Notes: generated by a model from the letters alone, not told the origin. A stretch of DNA of 64,000 bases from an uncultured Prolixibacteraceae bacterium (GCA_964455285.1 CAYVVG010000007.1:1751-65750), one strand, 5' to 3'. Counted from the first letter of the stretch, positions 3,993 through 63,528 are shown. Translations and numbers: made by a program.

Positions 3993-4268
3993 AAAGCGCA
4001 TAAACACCCCTCTATTCGTATTTGAATGTGGGATATAATATTGGATGTCTGTCGAATATATTGGTTTTCATGAAGAATTACTTTCCCTTAAACAACGATT
4101 TTCGACCTGTTTCAGGCGAATTGACCAAAAAAACAGCGGAAGTTGTTCGGAATCAAGATATACTACTGTAGCAACCTTGGTAGGTCGGGAAGCTGGTAAA
4201 TTGAAACAGTCTTTGACCCCAAACAAAAACTGTCTTGCTCTATATATTCAAATCTTACTAATCTCGTG

Positions 4269-27777: not shown

Positions 27778-28359
27778 ATGAACATGGATCCGACCCTGCT
27801 ACCCCTTGATCATACCGCCGCCCTGCAACTGCTTCACCGGTATGTCAAAAATGAAAAGATGATCTTTCACTGCCTGGCTTCGGAGGCGGTGATGGCCGGG
27901 ATCGCCCGGAGGCTGGGCCGTGACGAACAGGCATGGGGGCTTGCCGGCCTCCTTCACGACCTCGACGTGGAGATCACCAACGCCGATCCCCTGGTACATG
28001 GAACGCAGACCGAAGTGCTGCTGAAAGATTACGACTTGCCGCCCGAGATCCTCGACGCCATCCGGATGCACAACGAATGTTCATCGGGGAAGGAGCGCAG
28101 CACCGAATTCCAGCACGCCCTGGCGGCCGGCGAGACCATCACGGGGCTGATCTTCGCCACCACCTATGTCTATCCCGAAAAGAGACTGGCCGTCGTGAAG
28201 CCGAAATCGGTGGTCAAGCGGATGAAGGAGAAGATGTTCGCCGCCTCGGTGAAGCGGGAGAACATCCTCGAATGCGAAAAGATCGGGATCCCCATCGACG
28301 AATTCGCCGCCCTGGCGATTGCCGCCATGCTGCCGGTTGCGGGGGAGATAGGGTTGTGA
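27778..28359 (+). CDS. HD-domain phosphohydrolase
   Basis: I chose the ATG at 27778 (MNMDPTLLPL...). H..(29)..LLHDLD metal-binding pattern and ..IRMHNE... The stop codon lies inside the heptamer array at 28354-28381. Confidence 0.8.
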   Translation: MNMDPTLLPLDHTAALQLLHRYVKNEKMIFHCLASEAVMAGIARRLGRDEQAWGLAGLLHDLDVEITNADPLVHGTQTEVLLKDYDLPPEILDAIRMHNECSSGKERSTEFQHALAAGETITGLIFATTYVYPEKRLAVVKPKSVVKRMKEKMFAASVKRENILECEKIGIPIDEFAALAIAAMLPVAGEIGL

Positions 28360-28381
28360 GTTGTGAGTCGTGAGTTGTGAG
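28354..28381. repeat. heptamer tandem array 4 x (TYGTGAG)
   Basis: ttgtgag ttgtgag tcgtgag ttgtgag. It contains the stop codon of the HD gene and lies 16 nt from the stop of the convergent 194-aa gene. Confidence 0.9.
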
Positions 28382-29717: not shown

Positions 29718-29752
29718 GTGAGCCGTGAGTCGTGAGCCGTGAGCCGTGAGTC
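29718..29752. repeat. heptamer tandem array 5 x (GTGAGYC)
   Basis: gtgagcc gtgagtc gtgagcc gtgagcc gtgagtc, ending 1 nt before the stop codon (29754-29756) of the 695-aa gene. Same motif and orientation as 28354-28381. Confidence 0.9.
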
Positions 29753-29753
29753 G

Positions 29754-31841
29754 TCACTTTACCACTAACTTACCCCGTGTTGCGGCGCCGTTGTTTCGGA
29801 TGACTTCCACCAGGTACATGCCCCGGGACAAACCGGCCAGGTCGAGACGGAAATCGGTTGTTGCTTGAAGTAGCCGGTGTTTCCTGACGGGCCGGCCGAA
29901 AAGGTCGGTCACATGTACCGCCTGCGGATGGCCCTCACCCCGTGAGTTAAACAGCAGGCGTGTGTAACCGGAGGCAGGGTTGGGAGTTATCGTAAAATCC
30001 CTCCCCGGTTGTTTATAAGCGGGTTCCGTCACCCCCACCGCAAAGGGTGACCGGGTAGAGAGAATTCCGCCCTGGGAACATCCGATCCAGCCGGTGCCGT
30101 CGGGTGAAACGGCCAGGGAGACCAGGTTCTGGATGGTCGTCACCGGTTCTGCAAGCCACTGATCACCGGATAGGGTAAATAACTCTGAACTGCCGATGGC
30201 ATACACATGTTCAGGGTCGGGATGACAGACATTGATAAGCCCGCCGGTTGATTCCGGACCGGGAGTCCAGGTGGATCCGTCAAAGTGATAGCTGACCCCG
30301 TGCATGTTGAATGAGGAATAGCCTACCGCCCATCCCGAGTTGGGGGAACAGAAAGAAACGGCTTGCATTACCTGGTCCGGCGGCGCAGCCATCTCCTCTG
30401 TCCAGGATCCCAACTGGTACCGGATGATCGCGTACTGAAATCCCGGGGATTTCCTGGCGATTCCCCAACCATGCGACGGATCCGTGAAGCTGAGGGAGCA
30501 TATCAGGCGGAGATCCGGGAAATAATAGGTGATCATTGAATTCCCGCTCAACAGGTAAACCCGGGCGCCACCGGAGACATAATCGGCCGCCAGCCAGGCG
30601 CCGCCATCTGGTAACGCACACACCACGCCGATCGGCACGCTAAGTGTGTCGGTGATCAGCTGCCAGCCCGAAGAAGAGTATCTGTACAGGAAAGTCTTGT
30701 GCAACCGGTTCGACCAACCGGCAGCGATTCCATGGTTCGTATCGGCAAAATGGATGTGCCGGATGTTCACTTCGCCGAAAGAGGTATCGGGAGCGAGGGT
30801 TCCGTGGTGATAACGAAGAATGTATTTTCCGTCGCCGGCCAGCCAGCCATGGGCCGTGTCGGGAAACGACAGGTCGATCCTGCCTTCGGCCAGGGTGTTT
30901 GAATAGTCCCAGCCCGACGCATCATGCCTTAGAATATGGCCCCACTCGGTTGCCACGTACATCTGCCCGGCACTGCCGGGAGCCAGGGCGTTGGGTGTGC
31001 CCGGATTCACATAAGAGCCTGTCCACCGGTTGCCGTCGAACTCAAAAACTGTCGTATCCGTCCAGAACCAGTTCGTTTGTCCTCCGCAACTCCACCCATG
31101 CTCCGGATTGTCAAAATGCAGATCATTGGAGGTGCATGGGGGATTCGACGGCGCCCATGACCAGGATGAGCCGTCGTAATTCATGATAAAATTCATCCCA
31201 TCGCTGTAAACGCCACCGATCCATCCGTGATCGGCATCATAAAAGAAGAGTGATCTGATATCGAGGATGTCGGAAGAAACCAGGGGATTCCAGTGCCAGC
31301 CTGTTTGGTCGTAACGGTAAAATTGCATGAATCCGCCGCACCATCCGTGATCCGGATCCGTAAAGCACACCTCGGTCACCCCTCCGTAACCGAGCGTATC
31401 GAGCGTGGTCCAGGCGGTACCGTCATAGTGCATTCTTACCTGGCCCACGGCCCAGCCATTGTCGGGCGAGGGAAAGCAAACGTCGTACAAATCCCTGGTG
31501 GTCCCTGCGTTTTCCTGTATCCAATCTCCGTTCGAGTACCTGAGCAGGGTGCCATGATTGCCCACCGCCCAGCCGTGGTTTTCATCGGTAAACCAAAGGG
31601 CGTTCAGATCCTGAAAAGTGATCCGGTCATACATGCTCCATCTTGTGCCGATGTAATGAAGAAGCTTCCCACCGTTCCCGACCGCCCATCCCTCGCCGGC
31701 CGAAGGAAAACAGAGATCATTCAGATGGTTGCCATCCCCTGAGGGGTTGTGCCAGTACCAGGTATGCTGGGCCCCGGCGGGCAGGTTCCCACAGAGAAGT
31801 CCGATTATCAGGAGGATTGCAGGTAACGGGAAGATCTTCAT
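29754..31841 (-). CDS. T9SS-secreted beta-propeller protein (Ycf48/BNR-like repeats)
   Basis: Signal peptide MKIFPLPAILLIIGLLCGNLPAGA. Repeated ..GWAVGN.G.LL.Y.G..W.. blades. CTD FTITPNPASGYTRLLF...GMYLVEVIRNNGAATRGKLVVK. Confidence 0.85.
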   Translation of the reverse strand: MKIFPLPAILLIIGLLCGNLPAGAQHTWYWHNPSGDGNHLNDLCFPSAGEGWAVGNGGKLLHYIGTRWSMYDRITFQDLNALWFTDENHGWAVGNHGTLLRYSNGDWIQENAGTTRDLYDVCFPSPDNGWAVGQVRMHYDGTAWTTLDTLGYGGVTEVCFTDPDHGWCGGFMQFYRYDQTGWHWNPLVSSDILDIRSLFFYDADHGWIGGVYSDGMNFIMNYDGSSWSWAPSNPPCTSNDLHFDNPEHGWSCGGQTNWFWTDTTVFEFDGNRWTGSYVNPGTPNALAPGSAGQMYVATEWGHILRHDASGWDYSNTLAEGRIDLSFPDTAHGWLAGDGKYILRYHHGTLAPDTSFGEVNIRHIHFADTNHGIAAGWSNRLHKTFLYRYSSSGWQLITDTLSVPIGVVCALPDGGAWLAADYVSGGARVYLLSGNSMITYYFPDLRLICSLSFTDPSHGWGIARKSPGFQYAIIRYQLGSWTEEMAAPPDQVMQAVSFCSPNSGWAVGYSSFNMHGVSYHFDGSTWTPGPESTGGLINVCHPDPEHVYAIGSSELFTLSGDQWLAEPVTTIQNLVSLAVSPDGTGWIGCSQGGILSTRSPFAVGVTEPAYKQPGRDFTITPNPASGYTRLLFNSRGEGHPQAVHVTDLFGRPVRKHRLLQATTDFRLDLAGLSRGMYLVEVIRNNGAATRGKLVVK

Positions 31842-33567: not shown

Positions 33568-33658
33568 GCCAGGTGCCCAATGCCAAGTGCCAAGTGCCAG
33601 GTGCCAGGTGCCAAGAGCCAAGAGCCAAGAGCCAGGTGCCAAGTGCCAGGTGCCAGGT
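33568..33658. repeat. heptamer tandem array 13 x (GCCARGW)
   Basis: gccaggt gcccaat gccaagt x2 gccaggt x2 gccaaga x3 gccaggt gccaagt gccaggt x2. It lies in the divergent intergenic region, 105 nt upstream of the ATG at 33763. Confidence 0.95.
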
Positions 33659-33675
33659 CAGCCGCGAAGCGTTCT

Positions 33676-33703
33676 GTCACCCGTCACCTGTCACGCGTCA
33701 CCA
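33676..33703. repeat. heptamer tandem array 4 x (GTCACNN)
   Basis: gtcaccc gtcacct gtcacgc gtcacca. This is the reverse complement of the GTGACGS motif seen at 47487 and 62621. Confidence 0.9.
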
Positions 33704-44560: not shown

Positions 44561-44753
44561 AAATACGCGGTTTCTCGCATGTCGGGAGCAACGGCATATT
44601 CATAAATTTATACACATCTCAAAGATCATTTTTTCGCCATTCCCCCAGCTCCAGAAGGAACAGATGAACAATCGATTAACGAACTTTGATTTCAGATCGA
44701 AATTACTTCATAATTCCAAGATTCCTGCCTGCCGGTTACACTGCCGCAGACAG

Positions 44754-45449
44754 TCAGGATGCGGCAAAGTGGTCCTGCAGCCATCCTTCCAGATCTTCGA
44801 TCGAATATGCGTCGCGCAGGTGATAGGGGCCGATGCGGGTGCGGCAGAGGGCGGTGAGGTGGGCGCCGCAGCCGAGGTATTCGCCGAAGTCGCGGGCCAG
44901 CGCCCGGATGTAAGTTCCCTTGCTGCAGGCGATGCGGAAATCGACGTCGGGCAGTTCGAACCGGGTGATCTCGAAGGCGCTGACGGTGACCTGCCGGGGT
45001 TTGATCTCCACGGCGATATCCTTCCTGGCCGCGGCGTAGGCCCGTTTTCCATCCACCTGGATGGCGGAGAACTGCGGCGGCACCTGGTCGAAGGTGCCGG
45101 TGAAGTGGCGGGCGGCGTCGGTGAGGTCCCCCCACCCCGTCAGGGGGTAGGTGCGGTCGATCTCCGTCTCGAGGTCGAACGACGGAGTGGTCGCCCCCAG
45201 CCGGAAGGTGCCGGTGTACTCCTTCTCCAGCCCCTGGAACTCCCCGATGCGCTTGGTGAAACGCCCGGTGCATAGGATCAGCAGCCCGGTGGCAAGCGGA
45301 TCGAGGGTGCCGGCGTGGCCGGTCTTCAGCTTCCGGATGCCGGCATGCTGCCTGACGAGGCTGCGGAATTTTCCCACCACATCAAAAGAGGTCCAGCGGT
45401 AGGGTTTGTTCACCAGCAGGATCTCGCCCGATTCGAGGTTCAGCTCCAT
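44754..45449 (-). CDS. truB: tRNA pseudouridine(55) synthase
   Basis: Start at the ATG at 45449 ([25 protein letters not shown]). GHAGTLDPLATGLL catalytic Asp motif. It overlaps the uppP stop by 1 nt (TGATG). Confidence 0.9.
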   Translation of the reverse strand: MELNLESGEILLVNKPYRWTSFDVVGKFRSLVRQHAGIRKLKTGHAGTLDPLATGLLILCTGRFTKRIGEFQGLEKEYTGTFRLGATTPSFDLETEIDRTYPLTGWGDLTDAARHFTGTFDQVPPQFSAIQVDGKRAYAAARKDIAVEIKPRQVTVSAFEITRFELPDVDFRIACSKGTYIRALARDFGEYLGCGAHLTALCRTRIGPYHLRDAYSIEDLEGWLQDHFAAS

Positions 45450-46577: not shown

Positions 46578-47453
46578 TCAGGTGTACAATAAGTCGGTGC
46601 GCAGGCGCAGGTACTTGCGCACGGCCAGCCGGGTCGAGATCCAGGAGATCGCCATGCCGAGCAGCGGGATGGCGCCGGCGATCACCGCCAGGACCAGCGG
46701 GTCCTCCAACTCTGCCAGTTCCGGGATGCGGTCGAGGGCAAGCCAGGTCACCCCCATGAGCGCGAGCAGGGCGAAAAAGGCGCTGATCAATCCGTGCAGC
46801 AGGCTGCGGTAAAGCAGGGGCCGGCGGATGAAACCTTCGGTGGCGCCCACCAGTTGCATGCTGCGGATGATGAACCGGCGTGCGTACACGGCCAGCCGGA
46901 TGGTGTTGTTGATCAGCACGATGGCGATGAAGAGCAGGATGGCGCCGAAGCCCAGCAGCAGAAAACTGATCTTCTCGATGTTGCGGTTGATGGCATCGAC
47001 CAGCGACGGTTGGTAGAACACCTCCTTCACCCCGGGCAGGGCCAGCAGTTTCTTTTCGATCTTCCGGGCCGAGTCGGGGCGGGCCCAGGGTGCGTTGATG
47101 CGCATCTCGATGGAGGAGAGCAGGGGATTGTATCCGAGAAAACCGGTGAAATCCTCTCCCAGTTCGGTCTTTAACCTTTCGGCCGCCTTCTCGCGCGAAA
47201 GGTATTCGCACGATTTGACGAAGGGCTGCAGATCGAGCATCTTCTTGATCTGCAGGATCTCCGGTTCCCGCACACCTTCGCGGATCATGACGGAGAAACC
47301 GATGTTCTCGCGGACATGATCGGAAAGGATGCGGGCGTGCAGCAGGATCATCCCCGCAAGACCGGTGAGGAACAGCACCAGGGTGATGCTGATGACCGTG
47401 GTGACCTGCGATGCGGCGATGCGGCGGCGGTAGTAACGCTGTTCGTGGCTCAT
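46578..47453 (-). CDS. ftsX: cell-division ABC permease-like protein FtsX
   Basis: 291 aa with one N-terminal TM, a periplasmic domain and three C-terminal TMs (..ISFLLLGFGAILLFIAIVLINNTIRLAVYARRFIIRSMQLVGAT..), the typical FtsX pattern. Confidence 0.85.
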   Translation of the reverse strand: MSHEQRYYRRRIAASQVTTVISITLVLFLTGLAGMILLHARILSDHVRENIGFSVMIREGVREPEILQIKKMLDLQPFVKSCEYLSREKAAERLKTELGEDFTGFLGYNPLLSSIEMRINAPWARPDSARKIEKKLLALPGVKEVFYQPSLVDAINRNIEKISFLLLGFGAILLFIAIVLINNTIRLAVYARRFIIRSMQLVGATEGFIRRPLLYRSLLHGLISAFFALLALMGVTWLALDRIPELAELEDPLVLAVIAGAIPLLGMAISWISTRLAVRKYLRLRTDLLYT

Positions 47454-47486
47454 GGCGGAATAGAGGGGTAAAGGTAAACAAATTTT

Positions 47487-47672
47487 GTAACGGGTGACGG
47501 GTGATATATCTACGATCTATGATGTGCGATCTACGATCTGATGAGGCAATAGGGAATAGGCAACAGGCAATAGTTGCCAGTCAACAGTCTACAGTCGGCA
47601 GTCGCCAGTCTTACTCTGTTACTTTGTCACTCTGTCACTTTGTTATTCTGTCACTTTGTTACTCTGTCACTC
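47487..47672. repeat. composite mosaic STR element: blocks A(GTRACGG) B(ATCTAYG) C(nAGGCAA) D(CAGTCnn) E(ACTYTGTY)
   Basis: 18 consecutive heptads (47487-47612) run in one unbroken register across four motif blocks, followed by 7.5 octamers (47613-47672). The element fills almost the whole gap between the ftsX start (47453) and the stop codon of the 454-aa gene (47671-47673). Confidence 0.95.
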
Positions 47673-49035
47673 AATAGAGTATGATCTTTGAGGTCAGATT
47701 TAATCTGCCGTCGCGGCTAGTAACACGAACCACGTAAAACCCGTCGGGGATTCCTGCCCGTGAAAGAGAATAGGGATCCGTTTGGATGCCGCTGCGAAAA
47801 ATCTCCCGTCCGGTGCAATCATAAAGGGAAAGTTCTGCCGATTCTCCGGAGGCAATTCCTGTCACTTTGATCACACAGCCGTCTGTGGCTGGGTTGGGGG
47901 CGATTGACAGGGCCGGCAAGGTGTCCGCCGGCGTTTCATTGACATCGAGCAGCAATTCAGAACAGTCGGATGCAAGTGGCGTTCCCCAGGTTTCATTGCC
48001 TTTGCGGTAATACACCAGCCGCCAGTCATAAGTGACAGTTATCCATTGCTGGTTTGGATCCTGGATGAGATATTGATTGAAAAAGCGGGTCTGTCCCAGC
48101 CCTTCGGCATATTCATAATACGGTTTATTATCATTGTAACTCCAACAGTTGGATGAGGGCAGATTCTTTATGTAATAGTTCACATAAAACCTTTTCTTTG
48201 GATGGTTATTGAAACCGCCACTGTAGCGCAGAAACAGATCGCAAGCAGTAGAGGATTTAGGTTCAAATTCGAAAGGCTGCCGGTAAAACGAAGAATAAAA
48301 ATCATGATTGTGGAGGATGATCGTGTCGGCAGTCGTATCATGATTGTTGTAATAGGTAATGGGCGGAAAATTCATTGAATGAGAACAACGGTCGGTCAGG
48401 TAAACGATTGTGTCACCGGTCGCCGACATGCTCTTTGAAAGGATAATGCGGATTTCCCGAATACCAGTCGCACCCAGTGTGCAACCTGCGTAGTAATCCG
48501 TGTGAAACTCATCCCCGACATTAAAATCGTATGCATCCCCGATCGGGAAATCCTGGAGCCCGATCGGCGGGGTGCATTTTCCCGATAAGGTCCTGGGAAT
48601 AGTATCCTTGGGGAAAAGAACCATGTCGAAAACGTGGGTCAAACCGTAATTCTTTGATAAGATGATCTTTTTGTCATTGATGATATGCGCGATGTTCTGG
48701 TTCATCCCGTTTTTCGCCTGGAGAGAGATCACCTTTACCTGGTCTGTCACACCGCACACGGAATCGGTCCTGATTTCAGCTATCGTGGCCTGAATGTACC
48801 CGGCCAGGGGCAACGATGCCATTTTCCATGATTGGTTTAAACCGGCATCGCATTTCAGAAAGATGGAATCTCCCTCATGGTTGAAAAAAACGAACGTTCC
48901 ACCGGCCTTCCCGAGTACTTTATTGCCGAGTATCGACCCGTTCCAGATATCATAACACCATTGGCCCGAAGTGAACTTCCGGAAAGTATTGTATGAGTAA
49001 AACATCGTATCGGAGGGATTCCCCGGAACTGCCAC
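47671..49035 (-). CDS. T9SS-CTD protein, apparently lacking an N-terminal signal peptide (possibly 5'-truncated)
   Basis: CTD LSIAPNPATDGCVIKV...GFYVVRVTSRDGRLNLTSKIILY. The ORF opens with GTG (MAVPGNPSD..). The in-frame upstream sequence ..AQCGRLSIICTPGITSWEDP.. is closed by a TGA at 49132-49134 without an ATG. No signal peptide appears in any frame up to 49228. Confidence 0.6.
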   Translation of the reverse strand: MAVPGNPSDTMFYSYNTFRKFTSGQWCYDIWNGSILGNKVLGKAGGTFVFFNHEGDSIFLKCDAGLNQSWKMASLPLAGYIQATIAEIRTDSVCGVTDQVKVISLQAKNGMNQNIAHIINDKKIILSKNYGLTHVFDMVLFPKDTIPRTLSGKCTPPIGLQDFPIGDAYDFNVGDEFHTDYYAGCTLGATGIREIRIILSKSMSATGDTIVYLTDRCSHSMNFPPITYYNNHDTTADTIILHNHDFYSSFYRQPFEFEPKSSTACDLFLRYSGGFNNHPKKRFYVNYYIKNLPSSNCWSYNDNKPYYEYAEGLGQTRFFNQYLIQDPNQQWITVTYDWRLVYYRKGNETWGTPLASDCSELLLDVNETPADTLPALSIAPNPATDGCVIKVTGIASGESAELSLYDCTGREIFRSGIQTDPYSLSRAGIPDGFYVVRVTSRDGRLNLTSKIILY

Positions 49036-49228
49036 CGCAGAATCGAGCCGGAAGGAAGAGATGTTCTTATTCGGATCTTCCCAGGAGGTGATCCCGGGTG
49101 TGCAGATGATTGAGAGGCGACCGCATTGGGCTCATTCCTTGAGAGTATTTTGTCAAATATAACCATAATATTGTTCTTCGCGTTTCTTCGTGCAGCCACT
49201 TCCCCGGGGATCCATTCGATCAGTTGTG

Positions 49229-49378
49229 GTAACAGGGTAAAAGAGTGACAGAGTGACAAAGTAACAAAGTGACAGAGTAAGACTGGCGACTGTAGACAGT
49301 AGACTGGCAATTATTGCCTGCTGCCTACTGCCTATTGCCTCATCAGATCGTAGATCGTAAATCGTACATCGTAAATCC
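49229..49378. repeat. composite mosaic STR element, inverted copy (E' D' C' B')
   Basis: 6.5 octamers GTRACARA (49229-49280) are followed by 14 in-register heptads (49281-49378): gactggc.. / gcctnnt.. / nagatcg... It ends 2 nt before the stop codon (49381-49383) of the 547-aa gene. Its reverse complement is collinear with 47508-47672. Confidence 0.95.
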
Positions 49379-49380
49379 CT

Positions 49381-51000
49381 TCACCTCACCACCACCTTCC
49401 CGCTTGCCACGGTTTGGTCGTGGTACGACAACCGGATGAGGTACAGGCCCGGCTGCCATCCCGAAACGCTTAAGGTGACCTCTTTTTCGCCGTATTTCAG
49501 TTCCCGCGTAAAGCGTTGCCGGCCGAACAGGTCGAACACCGCCAATGTGGTGGCCTCCCACCGTGCCCGCCAGGTGGTGATGCTGAAAGCCGTTGTTTTC
49601 TGTGTTGTTTTGATTTGGTTGGGCAAAACAATATGAAGCACATCCTCCGCCGGGTTCGGGAATATCAGTATCTCCGTGCGCTCATCCTCAGCCTGTTGCT
49701 CCTCCGTGCCAACCAGCACGCAGTTCAATGGAATGGTATCTGAGGGGATGGGATGAGGACACAGACTGTCGTAAGTGAACGGCCGGGTGTAAATGGAATC
49801 AAACTCCAGATTGGAGTTGAATTTATAGGCCTGGGTGGTCCATGTGCTATTTTTAAAACCTCCAACCAGTAATAACTTATTGTCAAATGTAGAAACTCCA
49901 TCGCCGAACATGTATTGATTTACAAACAAAGGTTTATCAATAAGGATGTCGCCATTTTGATTGCATTTGACAACTCCGACCATCCCATCTAACGTTGAGG
50001 TAAGCGTATCCGTCCATCCATAACCGAGGGCCAGGGTTGAATCGGCGAACCAGTTGATGGTGGAACAGGCGCCCATTTTGGATAAAGGAAAGATATCGTG
50101 GTAGCTGAGTTCATTCCCGCTTGAATCTGTTTTCATCATACAGGGTTTATCTCCAGCATTGGTCCCGCCAATGACGATATGCCGGCCGGCGGTATAGATT
50201 GTCCCATGGTTATCGGAAACAGAGCTATATGATTCTCCATAGAAATTCTCACTATTGATCAATGACCAGGGAAGTTCCCATTCCGCCGTACCGGTACTGT
50301 CTGTTTTGATGACGAACGGGCGAAGGTAATAAGGTGTCGAACTCCCCGGATCAGGATAATAGCAAAACCCTGAGATAATAAAGTGAAAATCAGAAGTCAA
50401 ATAGAGATCTTCGCCTTGCTCAAATTTAATATCTGTACTGGTCTGGCCATATAGATTTTTCCAGAGTAAATCTCCATTGTTATCCAGGCGATAAAGCCAG
50501 ACACGTTCGTGAATGGGATCATCACCATAGGAATAAATAAGAGCAATATAACCACCAGGAATCGGCCAAATTGCCTGACCCCATTCATCATTTGGATTTG
50601 GGGTGTTATAAATGCGGCACCATTCAGGTTCTGCGCATTTATTCAATTTCATAATGAAGGGATTATGTTGATTTGTTTGCTCTCCTGTGATTCCTGTCAA
50701 GATAATACCATCGTCGTATGTTTGATTGATATCCCGGATATCCGTAACATCATTTACATTTGAAACCGTCTTATACCACAGCATCTCACCGTTAATATCT
50801 GTTTTAATGATCATACCTTTTTTTGGTATTACACCTGAAACAAAGCCACCACCAATGACATACCCCTTATCATAGCCTTCAAATACTCCGCCGAACCAAT
50901 TTGACCTATTCAGAAAATAAATCTTATGCCATTCTTGGGCTTCAAGCCCGAGTGCCGACATTAAAATAAATAAAGAAAATAATGGAGTAATTTGTTTCAT
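49381..51000 (-). CDS. T9SS-secreted hypothetical protein (low-GC body, GC-rich CTD)
   Basis: Start at the ATG at 51000 (MKQITPLFSLFILMSALGLEAQ). CTD ILIFPNPAEDVLHIVL...GLYLIRLSYHDQTVASGKVVVR. Confidence 0.8.
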   Translation of the reverse strand: MKQITPLFSLFILMSALGLEAQEWHKIYFLNRSNWFGGVFEGYDKGYVIGGGFVSGVIPKKGMIIKTDINGEMLWYKTVSNVNDVTDIRDINQTYDDGIILTGITGEQTNQHNPFIMKLNKCAEPEWCRIYNTPNPNDEWGQAIWPIPGGYIALIYSYGDDPIHERVWLYRLDNNGDLLWKNLYGQTSTDIKFEQGEDLYLTSDFHFIISGFCYYPDPGSSTPYYLRPFVIKTDSTGTAEWELPWSLINSENFYGESYSSVSDNHGTIYTAGRHIVIGGTNAGDKPCMMKTDSSGNELSYHDIFPLSKMGACSTINWFADSTLALGYGWTDTLTSTLDGMVGVVKCNQNGDILIDKPLFVNQYMFGDGVSTFDNKLLLVGGFKNSTWTTQAYKFNSNLEFDSIYTRPFTYDSLCPHPIPSDTIPLNCVLVGTEEQQAEDERTEILIFPNPAEDVLHIVLPNQIKTTQKTTAFSITTWRARWEATTLAVFDLFGRQRFTRELKYGEKEVTLSVSGWQPGLYLIRLSYHDQTVASGKVVVR

Positions 51001-51075
51001 GTTAATCCGATGATAATAAACCACAAAGTTTCATGATGTGCCTGGCAATTGACTCGGGGTAAATTGAATGATCAA

Positions 51076-54000
51076 CTACCTGGTAAGGGTTACTTTGGCT
51101 TGCTGAAGGGCCTTTCCCTTGGTGTTCAGTGTCACGATATAAACACCCTGGCTCAGATCAACAACCGGAATTACTTTTTGGTCATCCCTTAGTGTTATTG
51201 GTACTATCAGGAGTGTTCTTCCTAAGATGTCAGTTATCTCGATATTGCAACCTGCGCTGATATCTTGCAGATGATACTCCACAATGAAATGAGTGTTTGC
51301 CGGATTGGGATAAACCTTAAGCAGATTTCCTTCAAAATGAAATATAACGCCGCGGTACTTATCCCGTTTCGATGATTTTAAACCGGATTCCGGTAACAGG
51401 ATTGGCTCCGTGTACGTGATTTTCTCTGCAGCGAGAAGAAGGTTTCGGGCAAACGCACTCACTTGCCCCTGGTCTGAATTACTAATGAACAAAAGTGTTT
51501 GCACGTCCGTACTGTCAATATTCAGAACGGCAAGGGTATCCGTCGCAACTTTTTTAACAATTTCAAAAAGATATTCAAATGACTGTTGAGTTTCTTGCTG
51601 TTTTTCATCTAGAGAAAAGGAGACAGGAATCAGCGAAAGGGCATTTAATCCTATCTGATATTCCCCCTGCTGAAAATATGTAGCGACCCTATCATACCAG
51701 GAATCAATAGTATTCCTTTGTAGCAGGATATAGATCAGGCTGTCATTGGCAAACCCGTCCGCTGTATCGTTACGGTAATATCGCAGGAGGTTGTGATAAT
51801 GTTTGCTCCGTTCCTCATTCCAAAAGGCCTTCTGTGATTCAAGGCGCTCTTTGCCGCTGACTGAATCTTCTCCCTGCAGAATCTCCGCCATCAGGTAGTC
51901 GGGCATTGGTATGGTGCGATTCTCCAGCATATCAACCAGCATTTCCGATTTGGCCGAATGCGGATTGGCCACCATGATATCGCGTATCATCGCGTTGCTC
52001 AGTACCTCTTCCTTTTCTATGGCTGTTTGCATCACGGTATCTGACACATAGGGCGATGTGGCCAATAGCTCATCGCGGGTGGGCAATGCTTCAGGAGGGG
52101 TGCTGGTTGCAACTTCCTCAGAGAGGGTTTCGGTAGAACCCCCATCGACAAGTGTATTTAAAATAGTATTGATGCTGTCGGATGCTTCTGCAGATGACAC
52201 CATAGCATCAATTTCTTCATTGCCATTTCCACCCACGCTAATGCTTGATGGACAAGCTAATATCTCATCAAATCCAATGCCAACTGGATATGGGGTAATA
52301 GGTCCATTTGGATAATCAGGCTTAAGACGATATTGAGGCACCTGTACATTATGAAAATAGTAATTAATTAAAGCAAGCCCATTATCCAAATCAAAATGAG
52401 AAGGAAGGGGTGTATAATCGAACATATTACCAGCCGGCCCTGTTGGAGTGGCTGAATTTGTTCCCTGGTTTTCCGCTATCCCGAAGTCTTGTTGATTTGG
52501 AATATTAGGGTCTTTGGTAACGGCGATATCGGAGTAATTGTCGAAGAATTTGTTGCATTTGTAACAAAGACCTTCTTTTGTAACGGCGTTCCGGTTCCGG
52601 TTCTGGGCTATGGTGGCATAGGATAGGTTGGTAAAGGTATTCCGGTAGATCCGGTTGATTTCGGCGGGATTGTTGACAATGGAATTATTGATGATCAATC
52701 CGATGCCGTCGCAGTATTCGCCTTCGGAATAGAAAGTATTTTCCTCCACCTGGTACCCGCCACATTCATTGAGGTACATTCCGTACGTATCGACATATTC
52801 CTCGCCGGGCCGGTAAGACCGGAAATTGCAATTCACCACCGTGGAGTTTGCCGCGCCGCTGGAAGCGCTGATATATAAGCCTTTCACGTTGTCGTAAAAG
52901 TTAGTGTGCCGAATATTGACGTAGGTAAGGCTACCGGAATTCAGAGAGACGACTCCCTTTGAAAGCTTTTCAAACGCAGAAGGGACGGGTTCATTGCAGG
53001 GAACTTCATCCACCAGGCATCCCTCATCCATAATCAGGCGCGAATTATCACAATAAATACCCGTACCGCGTACCGAAAGGGGTACGCTCTCCCAACTCCG
53101 GGTATTTTTAAAGGAACATCCGTAAACGGTAACATCGGCCACGCCATAAGCCTTGATGAAGCAATCGGGCGTCACCGATTCATTCAGCACTGCATTGGTA
53201 ATGAAACTTGAATTCTTGAAATAGGATCGATTGAAATATGTATAGGGGGAAAAGAGGACCGCAACTTTATTGTTGATAAAATTACCATCGGTACACCAAA
53301 TCAAACCCCCGGCATACCTGGGAGCGAATCCGCTTCCGTCGTCCAGCATTTTTCCTGCCAGGATCCCAATCTCGGCATTTTCAATGGTGCCACCGTTGAT
53401 AATTTGAAGCCTTCCCTGGTTGGTCACCGGTATCTGTGCCAGGTCGCGATCGCCCCAAACCTCGATACCTTTCCATAAATAACCACAGTTCTGCGTAATC
53501 CTTCCCCCATTGAGAATCAGTCTTGCACCTTGTTCGATTATGATACGTGAGCCTTTAGGCATATAAAGGGTGCCGGTGACTGTCAATGTATTTGGCGCTT
53601 TAATCTTGAAGCTATTTTCAAGGATACGGTCATTAGACCATGTTTCAGTTGCGGTTACCTCCTGATAAATATTATCGGACGATAACAAATCGGTCTCCCA
53701 CAAACCCCTTCCGAAAGTAGCGGCCACCAGTTTGCCGGTGCATGGGTTTATTTTGATCTCGGTCACCCTCACGTTTGGAATATTGCCATACCGGGTCCAG
53801 TTAGCAGTCGGGGCAGTTTTGACATACACTCCGGCGTCGGTGGCGATGTACAGCCGGTCGTTGGTTCCTTCCTGGTAAACGATTCCGTTGATGGGCAGGT
53901 TAGGGAGCGATCCTGTCGGATCATAATTTGACCAGGAGTACCCGCCGTTCGAGGAATAATATACTTTTAATGTCGGGTAATACCCGGTTAAACTGATCCA

Positions 54001-56244
54001 GATCTTATTCGGGTCACTGGGATGGACGGCGATACCGGTGATAATCGGATGATATATGGTGGTATCGCCCGGAATGACCGGCAGGGAGTCGGTCAGATCG
54101 GCAAACTTGTCGATGGAGTAATTTCCGTTGTTGCCGCCGGTGGTGGAACGGTACAACTGGGGAGGAACAACACCCCAGGTAGGATCAATCTGACCTCCCA
54201 CGACGATGTAAATGTAGTTTTTATTGCTGGGAGCAATGGCGAATTCGGTAATCTGCCTTAAATCAATCGTTGACATGTATTTAGAAATATCCGATTGAAG
54301 TTTCCACAGCGTGTCTCCCAGGTCATCCGGACGCATTTTCTTGCGTTCAAATAGTTCTGTGAATCCAAATATTGGATTATTCTCTGATATATGTTTATGT
54401 ACCTGAAATGTCTTGGGAAGTTTTACAGTTAAATTGGTAATAGGATCAAGCGGCAAAAAGTGAGTGTTGCCGTATTCTTCAGCAACCACACTACTGGATG
54501 ATGGCACGTATTCATGTCTCCAAAAGGTATCGCTCTTGTCGATGAATGAAATTCTTTCAGCCTGATAACCTATTTGCGCTCCATAACCATCTCCGTCAGC
54601 AATTGGAGACCATAGTAAATTTCCATTATTCAAATGTCTGATTTTAGTGCCATTGCACTGAAAACCTGTAATAGTATAGTCTTTGTACATTTTCGAAATA
54701 TCAAAACTCCAAATCATTGAGACATTCAATCCGGAATATTTGCGTGTCCAATAAGGTGTCACAACTGATGTTTTAACTTCATGCACGCTTATCCCGCCAT
54801 GTGTTGCAGCAAAAAGCTTTGGCTCTTGCGATACATTGGGCTGAAAACACAGTGTATGACAATCAGCATGATAACCGTGTTCATTGTATCTGCATTCAAT
54901 ATTCCAGACCGGAGATGATGCTAAGACATTTCGACACCCACAAACCCGGGTATGACCATAAAAGAGTTGATTGGCATCGACAGGTGAAGAAGCAATCCCC
55001 AGCCAATCTGGAGAAAATTGTCCATACAAATTTACCTCATGGTTATATTTATGACTATTGTCAACGCGTAGTTGGGTCCAAGTGTTATTTCTAAACATAA
55101 AAATATAAGCAATTTGTGATGCCCTGCATTGAGGATTTGTGCAAAGGTACGTTCCCTCAATATAAGCATAAAGTCGCGTCGAATCTGCAGGTGTAACGGC
55201 AATATTGATCCTGTTAACTTCGCATTGCGGTAATGAATCTATAATGAGACCAAAGGGGAATGTCATTGATTGCCATGTATTCCCACCGTCTGTTGATCTG
55301 TAAATATCCTTTCCACTGGTATAGATCGTCGAAGGATGCCCGGGTTGAAATTCCAAGCCCCGGTATTCATAGTCGGTCGAATCAAGCCCGATGAGACACC
55401 TTGTCCATAATGGCGCATTTGCAAGGGCATTGTTTGTCCTGAATATTCCTTTTGAGGTCGCAACAAAAAGTTGATTTGAGTTTTGAGGATTGATAATCAC
55501 TCTTCGTGTTGTACCTGATGTTTGAAAATATTCGATAAAGCCATTATTAATTGGTTGCCAGGTAATCCCGGCATTGGTCGATCTATAAATGCCGCTGGTC
55601 GAAATGGGATTGATTATTCCCCAGTTGGGATTTGATTTAAACGAGACTCCGGCATCACCCAGCCCTGTGGATATAAATAACGCGTTTGAGTTGTCATAAG
55701 CAATCGCAATATCTGAGACACTAGTCATGGGAAGTTGATGATCAGTATTTACAACCTCCCATAAGTCTCCATTATTGATCGTTTTCCATAGTCCGCCGTA
55801 AAAAGAAGCTGCATAGATCACTTGATTGCTGGTACTATTGTATTGAGGGTCAAATGTTATTCGATGAATTTGGCCGTTTCCATTTGTTTCTGGTACCCCC
55901 TCTTCATCTGACCCGATCGGACCTAAAGGGGTCCAGGTAATCGAACTTAATTCAGTGCTATCCGGACCATTGTTTAAGAAGTCCATGTAATATTCTGAAA
56001 GGGCCTGCATTGCTACCCCAGCATTGCCATGCGGATATAACCGTGGTCCCCAGATGGAAAAGGTCCTGTCATACTCTTTTGCAAATCCACTCCGCCGATT
56101 GGTGTCGCCAATAGCAGGCATTGGATTATCCTGATAAAAATTCAGCATGAATTCGTACAGGTTGTTGCCGTCCTGGTTTTGAGCCAATGATGCAAGTTGA
56201 CAAATAATCAACATAATCGTGATAATGAAATGCCGCGTTTTCAT
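51076..56244 (-). CDS. 1722-aa T9SS-secreted protein (N-terminal BNR/sortilin-like propeller, right-handed beta-helix region, CTD)
   Basis: Signal peptide MKTRHFIITIMLIICQLASLAQ. Asp-box-like STDGGNTW, SSNGGYSW, STTGGNNG. CTD LKVYPNPANTHFIVEY...GVYIVTLNTKGKALQQAKVTLTR. GC is markedly lower than in the core genes. Confidence 0.85.
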   Translation of the reverse strand: MKTRHFIITIMLIICQLASLAQNQDGNNLYEFMLNFYQDNPMPAIGDTNRRSGFAKEYDRTFSIWGPRLYPHGNAGVAMQALSEYYMDFLNNGPDSTELSSITWTPLGPIGSDEEGVPETNGNGQIHRITFDPQYNSTSNQVIYAASFYGGLWKTINNGDLWEVVNTDHQLPMTSVSDIAIAYDNSNALFISTGLGDAGVSFKSNPNWGIINPISTSGIYRSTNAGITWQPINNGFIEYFQTSGTTRRVIINPQNSNQLFVATSKGIFRTNNALANAPLWTRCLIGLDSTDYEYRGLEFQPGHPSTIYTSGKDIYRSTDGGNTWQSMTFPFGLIIDSLPQCEVNRINIAVTPADSTRLYAYIEGTYLCTNPQCRASQIAYIFMFRNNTWTQLRVDNSHKYNHEVNLYGQFSPDWLGIASSPVDANQLFYGHTRVCGCRNVLASSPVWNIECRYNEHGYHADCHTLCFQPNVSQEPKLFAATHGGISVHEVKTSVVTPYWTRKYSGLNVSMIWSFDISKMYKDYTITGFQCNGTKIRHLNNGNLLWSPIADGDGYGAQIGYQAERISFIDKSDTFWRHEYVPSSSSVVAEEYGNTHFLPLDPITNLTVKLPKTFQVHKHISENNPIFGFTELFERKKMRPDDLGDTLWKLQSDISKYMSTIDLRQITEFAIAPSNKNYIYIVVGGQIDPTWGVVPPQLYRSTTGGNNGNYSIDKFADLTDSLPVIPGDTTIYHPIITGIAVHPSDPNKIWISLTGYYPTLKVYYSSNGGYSWSNYDPTGSLPNLPINGIVYQEGTNDRLYIATDAGVYVKTAPTANWTRYGNIPNVRVTEIKINPCTGKLVAATFGRGLWETDLLSSDNIYQEVTATETWSNDRILENSFKIKAPNTLTVTGTLYMPKGSRIIIEQGARLILNGGRITQNCGYLWKGIEVWGDRDLAQIPVTNQGRLQIINGGTIENAEIGILAGKMLDDGSGFAPRYAGGLIWCTDGNFINNKVAVLFSPYTYFNRSYFKNSSFITNAVLNESVTPDCFIKAYGVADVTVYGCSFKNTRSWESVPLSVRGTGIYCDNSRLIMDEGCLVDEVPCNEPVPSAFEKLSKGVVSLNSGSLTYVNIRHTNFYDNVKGLYISASSGAANSTVVNCNFRSYRPGEEYVDTYGMYLNECGGYQVEENTFYSEGEYCDGIGLIINNSIVNNPAEINRIYRNTFTNLSYATIAQNRNRNAVTKEGLCYKCNKFFDNYSDIAVTKDPNIPNQQDFGIAENQGTNSATPTGPAGNMFDYTPLPSHFDLDNGLALINYYFHNVQVPQYRLKPDYPNGPITPYPVGIGFDEILACPSSISVGGNGNEEIDAMVSSAEASDSINTILNTLVDGGSTETLSEEVATSTPPEALPTRDELLATSPYVSDTVMQTAIEKEEVLSNAMIRDIMVANPHSAKSEMLVDMLENRTIPMPDYLMAEILQGEDSVSGKERLESQKAFWNEERSKHYHNLLRYYRNDTADGFANDSLIYILLQRNTIDSWYDRVATYFQQGEYQIGLNALSLIPVSFSLDEKQQETQQSFEYLFEIVKKVATDTLAVLNIDSTDVQTLLFISNSDQGQVSAFARNLLLAAEKITYTEPILLPESGLKSSKRDKYRGVIFHFEGNLLKVYPNPANTHFIVEYHLQDISAGCNIEITDILGRTLLIVPITLRDDQKVIPVVDLSQGVYIVTLNTKGKALQQAKVTLTR

Positions 56245-56413
56245 GGCAGTGGGGTAATGATGTTATAAAAATTATTGGGAATTCGAAAGATGGGAATAAA
56301 ATTACAATATAATAAAGCCATTGTCAAGGGAAACTTTTACACGGATTTTGTCCGAAAATCGGACGGATTGGTGCCTTTGAAAAAGCTATCCAATTGGATG
56401 ACTGACGACTGAC

Positions 56414-56449
56414 AAAAAAAATCGGGGCAACTTTTCTGCCCGGATTTTT
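56414..56449. terminator. orphan bidirectional terminator-like hairpin (A-run, stem, T-run)
   Basis: AAAAAAA ATCGGGGCA-acttttc-TGCCCGGAT TTTT, with 8 of 9 stem pairs. No annotated gene ends here. Confidence 0.3.
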
Positions 56450-56533
56450 CAGGGTATCGTGCATTTCCGGCGGGAAAATCCCCTTCGTGAAGGTGAAAAT
56501 ATCTGATCCGGACCATGGAATTCCATCCGGGAT

Positions 56534-56578
56534 GCAGTCAGCAGGTACTCTGTTATTCGGTCACTCGTCACCTCACCA
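56534..56578. repeat. degenerate D/E-type STR block
   Basis: gcagtca gcaggt actctgtt attcggtc actcgtc acctcacc. It resembles the CAGTC and ACTYTGTY blocks of 47578-47672. Confidence 0.5.
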
Positions 56579-56659
56579 ACACTTCATGACACTTCTTTCG
56601 TTTGGCAAATAAAACGAATCGTGACTCGATGCAACCCGACGGGCCCGGTTGGTTATTTG

Positions 56660-56701
56660 GTGATATATCTACGATTTACGATGTGCGATCTACGATCTGA
56701 A
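56660..56701. repeat. dispersed copy of the 42-nt A-tail/B block
   Basis: gtgatat atctacg atttacg atgtgcg atctacg atctgaa matches 47501-47542 at 39 of 42 positions. Confidence 0.9.
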
Positions 56702-56895
56702 AGCTGTCGCTTCGTGTTGCCATTTTCCTTTTTTCACCACAATAGGCACAATAGGACCCCATTGGGGTTTCCCTGATGTGTTTTCTGTTTGGCCTATGTG
56801 ACTGATATGGTTATTCCCACGGAAAGGCTAACTTTGCAGATTCCCGGCGTTCATCGTGAAAATCCGGGAAGATGAAGGAATTTCTATAAAATAAC

Positions 56896-57114
56896 CGCAG
56901 AGACGCAGAGACGCAGAGAATTCCCCTCCCTGTTTGGGGAGGGGAAGGCCGAAGGCCGGGGTGGGGCAAAATCTGCAGAGACGTAAAGGATGAATCGGAA
57001 TAACACAGGAAATATAAAGACGCAGAGTATTGAATCGGGAGAACATCCAGGTAAGCTGATACGCACCGGGAGGAGGCATAGAGCAAGATTTCTCTGCGTC
57101 TCTGCGTCTCCGCG
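56896..57114. repeat. inverted pair of octamer arrays 3 x CGCAGAGA ... 3 x TCTCTGCG enclosing 171 nt
   Basis: The left arm 56896-56919 and right arm 57091-57114 are complementary at 23 of 24 positions. The interior holds hairpins CCCCTCC-ctgtttg-GGAGGGG and GGCC-gaa-GGCC, plus a ~40-nt imperfect tandem duplication (..CAGAGACGTAAAGGATGAATCGGAATAACACAGG / ..CAGAGTATTGAATCGGGAGAACATCCAGG). It ends 60 nt before the leuS ATG. Confidence 0.9.
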
Positions 57115-57174
57115 GTCATTTAATATAGTTACAAAGTAACCAAGCCACCCCGGGGTGGGAACAAATTTCAAGTT

Positions 57175-59988: not shown

Positions 59989-60018
59989 CCCGGCTCGCCG
60001 GGAGGATGAAAAAGCCGT

Positions 60019-60621: not shown

Positions 60622-60665
60622 CGGTTAACGACTGGTTATCGGGTTGTTAATGAGTTGTTAATGGC
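60622..60665 (+). promoter_or_regulatory. four phased 11-nt direct repeats with kGTTAw core (candidate OmpR-family regulator binding array)
   Basis: GGTTAACGACT GGTTATCGGGT TGTTAATGAGT TGTTAATGGCG. The last two are 10/11 identical. The array ends 23 nt upstream of the -7 box of the kinase/regulator operon. Confidence 0.35.
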
Positions 60666-61941: not shown

Positions 61942-62638
61942 AGATAAGACCCGGATATTGCTCGCCGAGGACGACCTGAACCTGGGGGTCCTGCTGGTGG
62001 ATTACCTCGAAGCGGAAGGGTACGATGTCAAGCTGTGCAAAGACGGGGAGCTGGCGCTGAAAGCTTTTCAGGGCAGCCCGTTCGACCTCTGCCTGCTGGA
62101 TGTCATGATGCCGAAGATGGACGGTTTCGCAGTGGCAAAAGCCATCAGGAGGGTGGATAAGGCCATTCCGGTCATCTTCATCACGGCCCGGTCGATGAAG
62201 GAAGACAAGCTGAAGGGCTACGACCTGGGGGCCGATGACTATATCACCAAGCCGTTTGACGAAGAGGAGCTGCTCTGGAAGATCCGGGCGGTCATCCGCC
62301 GCATCCCGGAAAACCGGAACGAAAAACCCGCGGAGATCATCCCGCTTGGGAGATATACCTTCGACGTCCATAACCAATCGCTATCCATTGATGGAAAAAC
62401 CAGGCGGATCACCGAAAAAGAGAGGGAGATCCTTCTCTACCTGACCCGCCATGCCAACCGGCTGATCAAACGCGACGACATGGTCAAGGATCTCTGGGGC
62501 AGGAAAGATTATTTTCTGGGAAGAAGCCTCGACGTGTTCATCACCAAGATCCGCAGGTACCTGAATGAAGATCCGGCGCTGGAGATCGAAAGCGTGTTCG
62601 GCGTGGGTTTTATTTTTCACGTGACGCGTGACGCGTGA
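61934..62638 (+). CDS. OmpR/PhoB-family response regulator
   Basis: Start at the ATG at 61934 (MPEDKTRILLAEDD), overlapping the kinase stop by 8 nt. Receiver LCLLDVMMPKMDGF and winged-helix output ..LTEKEREILLYL..VFGVGFIF. The last codons (..HVTRDA*) are encoded by the GTGACGC heptamer array. Confidence 0.9.
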   Translation: MPEDKTRILLAEDDLNLGVLLVDYLEAEGYDVKLCKDGELALKAFQGSPFDLCLLDVMMPKMDGFAVAKAIRRVDKAIPVIFITARSMKEDKLKGYDLGADDYITKPFDEEELLWKIRAVIRRIPENRNEKPAEIIPLGRYTFDVHNQSLSIDGKTRRITEKEREILLYLTRHANRLIKRDDMVKDLWGRKDYFLGRSLDVFITKIRRYLNEDPALEIESVFGVGFIFHVTRDA

Positions 62639-62648
62639 CGGGTGCCAT
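62621..62648. repeat. heptamer tandem array (GTGACGS) x3 plus partial
   Basis: gtgacgc gtgacgc gtgacgg gtgccat. It contains the regulator stop codon (62636-62638). Confidence 0.9.
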
Positions 62649-62737
62649 TGGGTTTCATTTCCGGTTAAATTTTATTTGACAAATGAAAAATATCGGGTAT
62701 TTTCAATTTGTGAAATAATAATACTCCTTGTCTGAAA

Positions 62738-63355: not shown

Positions 63356-63387
63356 GGTCACCATTCTGCCGGGATACAGAACCACAG

Positions 63388-63450
63388 TTGCCTGTTGCCT
63401 GTTGCCTGATGCCTGATCAGATCGTCGATCGTAGATCGTACATCGTAGAT
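63388..63450. repeat. composite STR element (C' B' blocks), 9 in-register heptads
   Basis: gcctgtt gcctgtt gcctgat gcctgat cagatcg tcgatcg tagatcg tacatcg tagatcg. Same block order and junction as 49316-49378. Confidence 0.9.
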
Positions 63451-63528
63451 CGGAATTCCGGTACACTCTTTGTTCCCTCCTTCCCTTTTGGTAATATTGT
63501 CCTCTCTTCCGGACGAAATCAAACCCGT

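Follow-up and report, generated by a model that had tools for sequence, protein, structure and literature searches.

Copies of a composite heptamer and octamer repeat array in the intergenic spacers of an uncultured Prolixibacteraceae bacterium

In a 64,000-nucleotide stretch of the genome of an uncultured Prolixibacteraceae bacterium (GCA_964455285.1 CAYVVG010000007.1:1751-65750; the whole stretch is called the window here), the spacer upstream of ftsX contains a 186-bp mosaic of five different short-tandem-repeat blocks, which we term element A. We found that the window contains at least four members of a dispersed family of composite arrays, element A among them. We are highly confident that this family consists of simple sequence repeats (SSRs) resembling the short tandemly repeated repetitive (STRR) sequences of cyanobacteria. 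Regarding its origin, we lean slightly towards slippage or unequal exchange, followed by divergence in place and recombinational copying between spacers, with no sequence-specific function for element A. Heptamer arrays in Bacteroidetes have already been described, and element A is a further example that leaves knowledge of this kind of repeat unchanged.

Tandem Repeats Finder (TRF) and manual parsing both supported the coordinates and composition of element A given in an earlier note on this DNA:

47487..47672, plus strand: element A, 186 bp, 3 + 5 + 5 + 5 heptads and then 7.5 octamers
47487..47507, plus strand: block 1, GTAACGG, GTGACGG, GTGATAT, with a GTRAC core, 33 nt upstream of the ftsX start codon
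47508..47542, plus strand: block 2, ATCTACG, ATCTATG, ATGTGCG, ATCTACG and the hybrid ATCTGAT, of ATnTACG type with the wobble at unit position 3
47543..47577, plus strand: block 3, GAGGCAA, TAGGGAA, TAGGCAA, CAGGCAA and the degenerate TAGTTGC, of nAGGCAA type
47578..47612, plus strand: block 4, CAGTCAA, CAGTCTA, CAGTCGG, CAGTCGC, CAGTCTT, of CAGTCnn type
47613..47672, plus strand: block 5, 7.5 ACTYTGTY octamers whose C/T alternation gives a 16-nt super-repeat (TRF score 101)

TRF returned four period-7 arrays inside 47487-47612 and, in addition to them, a period-8 array, and the manual parse concurred. The span 47487-47612 is indeed 126 nt, or 18 x 7, and the alternation of ACTC and ACTT in block 5 does produce the 16-nt super-repeat that the earlier note described. 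The end of block 3 forms a small palindrome (GGCAA-TAG-TTGCC). The spacer between the ftsX ATG (47453) and the stop codon at 47671-47673 on the minus strand measures 217 nt; element A fills 184 of these, nearly the whole gap as had been claimed, and block 5 overlaps the stop codon of the gene at 47671-49107 by 2 nt. Element A is real sequence and no assembly artefact: it was reproduced exactly in independently assembled contigs of SRR10083293 and SRR10083294, which extend into unique flanks at 100% and 99.96% identity.

Three further copies of the mosaic were found in the window:

49229..49380, minus strand: element B, a copy of A in inverted orientation, its blocks 2-5 ordered as in A, with a degenerate, GGTGA-rich block 1
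56659..56700, plus strand: element C, a partial copy comprising GGTGATAT and block 2, 95% identical to 47500-47541 in direct orientation
63388..63451, minus strand: element D, a partial inverted copy of blocks 2 and 3, 86% identical to B

Elements A, B, C and D have in common their block order, the exact junctions CGATCTGATGAGGCAATAGG and CAGTCGCCAGTCTTACTCTGT, and variants that agree unit by unit, at 84-95% identity; their flanks are unrelated. Element B abuts the stop codon (49381) of a 547-aa gene. One of its arms is complementary to A over 96 nt (88%) and the other over 78 nt (83%), and the alignment of A with B requires a single indel that is exactly one heptad long. The earlier note had reasoned about independent slippage events at adjacent sites; the common junctions and unit-by-unit variants of the four copies show that element A was not constructed in this way at its present position.

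To place the family among the other repeats of the window, we took a census of periods by sliding self-match over the 64 kb and compared it with first-order Markov simulations. The census returned 12 arrays of period 7 (470 nt), three of period 8 and one of period 9, with none at periods 4-6 or 10-12; the simulations yielded approximately zero arrays. Period 7 is uniquely over-represented, and element A far exceeds chance. Arrays outside the A-D family include:

33568..33702, plus strand: array E, GCCARGT x12.6, a 16-nt spacer and CNGTCAC x4 (GTCAC core), in a divergent spacer
62620..62647, plus strand: array F, GTGACGC x3.6, at the 3' end of a response-regulator open reading frame (ORF)
28353..28381, plus strand: array G, GTTGTGA x4.1, in a convergent spacer, with the TGA stop of an HD-domain gene within the first unit
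29718..29754, plus strand: array H, GTGAGYC x5.3, abutting the stop codon of a type IX secretion system (T9SS) cargo gene
56896-56919 and 57091-57114: an inverted pair of octamer arrays

Cores of GTGAC, GTCAC or GTGAG underlie many of these arrays, and at least 10 distinct unit types occur within the 64 kb. The arrays are confined almost entirely to spacers, with 692 of 721 array nucleotides being intergenic and making up 11.7% of the intergenic DNA in the window. All eight array loci are intergenic, for which the chance probability is about 5e-9 at an intergenic fraction of 9.2%. Of the 15 spacers that measure 90 nt or more, seven hold arrays; these are all situated within 28-64 kb, and the left part of the window, where the integrase is encoded, has none. 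Positions 1-27000 contain no 7-8-nt arrays of four or more units, although five spacers there measure 244-701 nt. This region codes for a DnaA/IstB-like ATPase (2062-2919), for a tyrosine recombinase (4269-5489) and for a series of T9SS-cargo subtilases that contain cohesin, dockerin and GEVED domains; it may be an island of more recent acquisition.

Among the arrays adjoining a gene 3' end, 5/6 overlap or directly abut (0 nt) the stop codon, and distances from array to start codon range from 33 to 474 nt. The response-regulator ORF runs into array F by 4 codons (ending ...FHVTRDA), while the corresponding protein of a sister species ends ...FHV. Tandem, divergent and convergent spacers all hold arrays, and the orientation of the family relative to transcription is mixed, with A and D pointing one way and B and a related array at locus L018 the other. 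This placement looks like repeat DNA spreading into unconstrained space and is unlike that of a strand-specific signal.

Nothing in element A marked it as a structured or strand-specific signal. Neither the spacer (z -1.5) nor A (z -0.8) nor B (z +0.6) folded significantly better than shuffles, on either strand and as RNA or DNA, and no match to Rfam was obtained at gathering thresholds across the whole window. A promoter and terminator scan of 47454-47680 detected no terminator-like site and nothing convincing for promoters. With respect to a Bacteroidetes-type promoter (TAnnTTTG, which would put block 1 at -33), inspection showed that only 'TACCTTTA' is common to this species and the sister, with no properly spaced TTTG. 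The alignment of A, B, C and D revealed no terminal inverted repeats (TIRs), target-site duplications or defined ends, the copies being ragged and partial; GTRAC cores that are inverted between blocks 1 and 5 are the sole hint of symmetry.

The earlier note had emphasised that 18 heptads were held in one register across four motif switches. We scored the unit similarity of neighbouring blocks at all seven rotations. From block 3 to block 4 the in-register rotation was the best, with 3.6 matches versus at most 2.6 (CAGGCAA and CAGTCAA are one base apart). From block 1 to block 2 the in-register similarity was 1.8 and a different rotation reached 2.9, and from block 2 to block 3 the in-register value of 0.64 was the worst among the seven. 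Moreover, phase at these two junctions depends on counting the hybrids GTGATAT and ATCTGAT as units, an assignment made post hoc. Phase between unrelated units is defined only once a rotation has been chosen, and there is little information in the notion of one register. An unbroken phase can therefore be demonstrated only at the junction of blocks 3 and 4; by the rotation test it does not extend to the two preceding junctions, and the last block has a period of 8. The same cores also occur in octamer and nonamer arrays, both here and in the sister, and since block 5 has period 8 and the sister species carries 8-9-nt arrays on the GTGAC core, there is no strict 7-nt rule. The register between blocks 3 and 4 is what divergence in place of a single array would give. 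As this accounts for the only real register, and the mosaic is itself a copied unit, the proposed step from kept phase to a templated or selected 7-nt periodicity is not supported.

FtsX homologues place the organism among uncultured Bacteroidales, and comparison with the sister species indicated that the arrays turn over rapidly. The sister (GCA_964395725.1; loci L014-L017) is the nearest relative, with FtsX 88% identical, and further relatives stand at 72-73%. In the sister, leuS and ftsX are divergent neighbours 708 nt apart; in the relatives at 72-73% two DUF748 genes separate them, and in the window they are separated by three T9SS-cargo genes together with A, B and C. Upstream of ftsX both species have a GTGAC-core array, with period 7 in the window versus 8-9 in the sister and in opposite orientation. 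Downstream of the response regulator the sister has (CAGTCGG)n followed by ACTCTTTTACTCT, versus (GTGACGC)n in the window. At three orthologous spacers compared between the window and L014, the arrays differ in length and sequence, as well as in their unit, their period, their orientation and whether they are present. The four sister assemblies are identical over the entire leuS-ftsX spacer, indicating that the arrays are not hypervariable on that timescale.

A nucleotide map of the window against the sister located several synteny breaks. The break at 47477-57040 is bordered on one side by the left part of A and on the other by C together with the octamer pair; the 9,159-nt three-gene segment concerned is absent from the sister and is bracketed by 42-nt direct repeats (the left part of A and C, 95%). 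A second break, 62624-63455 (832 nt, absent from the sister), has F and D at its edges and an AAA_14/DUF4143 fragment inside. The break at 44568-44786 has no array on either side, and the sister has an intact AAA_14 gene there. Of the three differences in gene content between window and sister, two are bordered exactly by arrays. At a further break, 59989-60018, the sister carries (CAGTCGS)6 three nt past the leuS stop and the window has no array.

Two of these sites show additional features. In the leuS 3' region, a short GC-rich hairpin (CCCGGC-TCG-CCGGG) at window 59989-60018 and (CAGTCGS)6 with AT-rich sequence at L014 6393-6478 are alternative occupants. The AAA_14/DUF4143 fragment at window 62738-63355 is a 205-aa remnant with an internal deletion, flanked exactly by F and D; its intact 439-aa counterpart lies at another locus in the sister (L014 12825-14144), between truB and a sortilin-like T9SS gene. 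This gene seems to move or decay between spacers.

Intergenic 7-9-nt arrays were present in all relatives examined (FtsX 72-88%). The units ACGCAGAG and ACTGCCG (the reverse complement of CAGTCGG) recur in the sister, AGGCAAC followed by ACTCTGTY in L018, and AATCGTA in L024. Several relatives also have an array followed immediately by its own reverse-complement array, for example (GGGTGAAC)9 and then (GTTTACCC)8; such self-complementary pairs at L022 3999-4134 (folded over 3995-4140, z -11.5), L024 1062-1205 (z -8.8), and L023 4010-4100 and 12777-12860 have z values ranging from -6 to -11.5 and are predicted to have the potential for very stable long hairpins or cruciforms. One pair lies between two stop codons in a convergent spacer and could terminate transcription in both directions.

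Wider searches returned little of the composite. The junction of blocks 2 and 3 gave two matches in a collection of species-representative genomes that does not include this species, both of them chance matches in high-GC coding sequence with no nearby repeats. A degenerate block-2 pattern gave nine matches in metagenome contigs, essentially all of them chance, with only L013 having a related ACGATCT array. Sister contigs in the same metagenome collection were not matched by this pattern, which suggests that the composite is species-specific. In viral contigs neither the block-2 pattern nor the junction of blocks 4 and 5 was found. The block-5 octamer pattern produced four matches there, in unrelated contigs of 35-61% GC; it was rejected as a cross-taxon motif because three column-permuted controls gave 8, 0 and 1 matches. 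One phage-like IMG/VR contig (L026, 61% GC) has (ACTYTGTC)4.4 at 4822-4856 and (CCTTTGTG)4.4 at 5348-5381, in very short spacers between structural genes and abutting stop codons; the permuted-pattern controls show that octamer arrays are common in viral contigs.

Bacterial interspersed mosaic elements (BIMEs) of enterobacteria consist of imperfectly palindromic repetitive extragenic palindromic (REP) units of about 35 nt, which alternate in orientation and form hairpins. Element A resembles them only in being an intergenic mosaic between genes of one transcription direction; its units are non-palindromic 7-8-nt direct repeats throughout, without the alternating orientation of REP units, and its fold is not significant, so that this analogy in the earlier note does not hold. 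The comparison with cyanobacterial STRR sequences was apt: both are tandem, intergenic and abundant, mainly heptameric, and comprise several families with different units side by side. They differ in phylum and in unit sequence. One STRR unit, CAACAGT, can be rotated to give CAGTCAA, which occurs as a single unit here (47578-47584); this is a lead and not a test. Three tandemly repeated heptanucleotides are known in Calothrix PCC 7601 (as cited in PMC4692102).

Heptanucleotides are the most abundant class of long SSR in many bacteria, for which polymerase slippage has been proposed (Mrazek et al. 2007, as summarised in PMC4679880). The GGGAATC arrays of Xanthomonas and GGGGAYT arrays of Nostoc combine conserved and variable positions, have a mode of four units and form inverted array pairs, and a given spacer varies extensively among close relatives in how long its array is and in the sequence (Rehm et al. 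2015, PMC4692102). The window arrays share with these the excess at period 7, the restriction to spacers, core and variable positions, about 4-5 units per array, occasional inverted pairs and turnover at spacers. In contrast, their units are not G-rich and have no capacity for G-quadruplexes, many units coexist, and the five-block composite is itself copied. The earlier note knew of no such elements in Bacteroidota, yet heptamer arrays in five Bacteroidetes genomes were reported by MacGregor (2015; PMC4679880). In Gramella and Aequorivita one spacer may hold several different arrays, and Elizabethkingia has "larger assemblages of heptamer repeats" in intergenic regions that are nearly identical to one another. 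In close relatives the orthologous spacers lack the arrays, which were suggested to take part in rearrangement (PMC4679880). The present case agrees with them in phylum, mixed arrays per spacer, recurrent multi-heptamer regions, patchiness among relatives and the link to rearrangement; it differs in its units, in coming from a lineage of uncultured Bacteroidales, and in that block order, junctions and unit sharing are documented here. TRF output for the 64-kb window contained no TAACTGA array.

The analysis shows the family, where its arrays lie, how they turn over between species and that they lack structure; slippage and recombination as the mechanism, and the lack of a function, are inferred. 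Replication slippage or unequal exchange would amplify units of 7-8 nt, and subsequent divergence of units in place would keep the register automatically, as from block 3 to block 4. Ectopic recombination, gene conversion or inverted duplication would then place copies of whole multi-block stretches in other spacers, in either orientation. The arrays would expand through constraint-free DNA, from the stop codon, which is sometimes overrun, to about 30-200 nt before the next start codon. The main consequence of element A is probably to provide homologous substrates for rearrangement, without a sequence- or strand-specific job.

Several observations weigh against this reading. Variation within units sits at wobble positions (ATnTACG, nAGGCAA, CAGTCnn), where up to 3-4 different bases occur, and no core position varies; the chi-square P values of 5e-4 to 3.5e-3 are approximate because the units are not independent. 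This core-plus-wobble pattern could reflect selection on the core. Exact unit matches between the window and its relatives number 3 versus 0.3 expected from composition-preserving shuffles (P about 0.002), and matches within one mismatch 12 versus 3.2 expected (P < 0.0005), at non-orthologous spacers; here too the units are not independent and the samples are small, and the shuffle null is approximate, in that permutations of one unit vary from 0 to 8 matches in viral contigs versus 4 for the real octamer. The block orders 4-to-5 and 3...5 also recur in relatives. Such recurrence of unit types and block orders is not predicted by purely local slippage. The number of units is identical in the two assemblies of this species and the four of the sister, which are possibly clonal, although unit-sized indels do occur, as in the one-heptad difference between A and B. 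Finally, the sample is small, comprising 64 kb of this genome and about 20 kb per relative. Phase variation was considered as a separate candidate; no unit-number differences were seen across these possibly clonal assemblies, and ftsX, a housekeeping gene, is an unlikely phase-variable contingency locus.

The first of these observations would fit if the arrays were functional binding sites, with 5-6-nt cores at 7-8-nt spacing recognised by a protein that polymerises along contiguous units, in the manner of ribbon-helix-helix proteins on heptad or octad operators, or by a single-strand or RNA-binding protein of OB-fold/cold-shock type with a footprint of about 7 nt, modulating the transcription or translation of flanking genes and, in this case, ftsX. 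This account, which we consider unlikely though not far-fetched, would also accommodate a unit repertoire that is common to relatives (FtsX 72-88%) at non-orthologous spacers and the GTGAC-core array that this genome and the sister both have some 35-110 nt before the ATG of ftsX. There are precedents in the ParB/omega system of pSM19035 (PMC9499535) and in CspB, with one heptamer per monomer as discussed in PMC4679880. Omega-type parS sites need at least four contiguous 7-bp heptads without gaps, in any orientation (PMC9499535); contiguous, conserved-core heptads are present in element A, and the omega/ParB type requires a cognate binder nearby in addition. Like the omega sites and the heptamer promoter SSR of Haemophilus influenzae hmw (PMC8262952, PMC12721329), element A has contiguous, promoter-proximal 7-bp units, and in the omega system gap-free contiguity is functionally required. 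As presented in these sources, both systems have one unit type, few loci, and a known binder or variation in unit number, whereas here there are many types and many loci, with unit number invariant in the assemblies. At least 10 unit types in 64 kb would demand many binders or a very loose one, a scan of the larger ORFs with Pfam found no candidate binder gene beside the arrays, and array G lies in a convergent spacer without a promoter. Furthermore, the mixed orientation relative to transcription speaks against a role at the RNA level, and unit, period, orientation and presence all differ at orthologous spacers of the sister. A further reading holds that the clade keeps a limited alphabet of 7-8-nt units (GTGACnn, ACGATYT, AGGCAAY, CAGTCSS, ACTYTGTY, ACGCAGAG) and preferred adjacencies (3-4-5) by a dedicated mechanism, either array-binding proteins or templated repeat adding or copying, with the composites acting as cassette recombination sites. 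We give this little credence; if it were true, the arrays would be a functional heritable module and not slippage debris.

It is likewise improbable that the arrays form a non-autonomous mobile or integration module, in which they would serve as attachment or recombination sites for gene cassettes such as the T9SS-cargo genes and the AAA_14 fragment. The dispersed copies do keep their block order, the 42-nt direct repeats bracket a 9,159-nt segment missing from the sister, where leuS and ftsX are adjacent, F and D stand exactly at the edges of the 832-nt AAA_14-fragment insertion, and MacGregor proposed a role in rearrangement (PMC4679880). However, the ragged copies, lacking TIRs, target-site duplications and defined ends, have no recombinase or transposase nearby, the sole integrase lying 42 kb off in the array-free region, and the element junctions were not found in viral contigs. 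With arrays in 7/15 long spacers, co-location with insertions has a fair chance of occurring anyway, and the sister spacer has two direct GGTGAC arrays without an insertion. A related candidate, in which A and B are the terminal repeats of a cassette carrying the 454-aa gene between them, was rejected because homologues in L019 and L021 have no flanking arrays; that in L019 sits in a repeat-free T9SS-cargo cluster.

The genes flanking element A bear on one further possibility:

46578..47453, minus strand: ftsX (FtsX_ECD and FtsX domains), which lies downstream of element A
47671..49107, minus strand: a T9SS-cargo gene, a 454-aa ORF between the inverted copies B and A

If co-transcribed from the minus strand, A and B could pair as RNA over about 150 bp, leaving the 454-aa ORF in the loop. 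Such a duplex might separate the cargo genes from ftsX, as a signal for RNase III processing or for insulation. Its predicted energy is -216 kcal/mol, compared with -56 +/- 6 for shuffled partners and -36 to -40 kcal/mol for the self-folds, but pairing is automatic for inverted copies, co-transcription is assumed, and C and D have no comparably placed partner. In addition, homology of the enclosed gene to orthologues of about 500 aa begins at their residue 15-24, with in-frame stops upstream, and the signal peptide is missing; on this basis it is probably a 5'-truncated gene or a pseudogene. We regard a role for the duplex as very improbable. Finally, although tandem-repeat-rich sequence from a metagenome-assembled genome could in principle be an assembly artefact built from low-complexity reads, the agreement of two independently assembled runs with unique flanks, and analogous arrays in four sister assemblies and several relatives from different projects, make the probability of this negligible.

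Heptamer-dominated intergenic repeats, including STRR sequences, long SSRs and TAACTGA arrays, have been known for decades. The locus described here offers a clean comparative case, with a composite copied within one genome, units shared among species, fast turnover at orthologous spacers and arrays at synteny breaks. It gives testable material on two questions, whether such arrays are a cause of rearrangement and whether proteins bind to them. It also carries a warning for annotation: the 3' end of an ORF can be extended or overwritten by an array, and the arrays should be treated as a repeat class, not as regulatory RNAs or terminators.

Other repeats were noted in the same regions. The inverted octamer arrays, (CGCAGAGA)3 and (TCTCTGCG)3, form the edges of a 241-nt element (56885-57125) about 50 nt upstream of leuS, which holds the perfect hairpin CCCCTCCC-TGTT-TGGGGAGGGG and has a minimum free energy of -98.6 versus -63.5 +/- 4.4 for shuffled sequences (z -8), with no Rfam match. 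Related octamers in the sister are GACGCAAA x2 upstream of leuS and TGCGTCTC x2.5 at L014 6064-6083. Just upstream of a histidine kinase/OmpR-type response-regulator operon lie 11-nt direct repeats (window 60624-60663, GTTAACGAGTT; L014 5892-5932, TCATTAACAAC), whose position is conserved in the sister, unlike the fast-evolving 7-8-nt arrays; they may be binding sites of the response regulator for autoregulation. Within the sister truB ORF there is a 19-nt unit, ACCCCGACGGGGTGGGGGG x3.8 (L014 12306-12377), which is absent from truB of the window.

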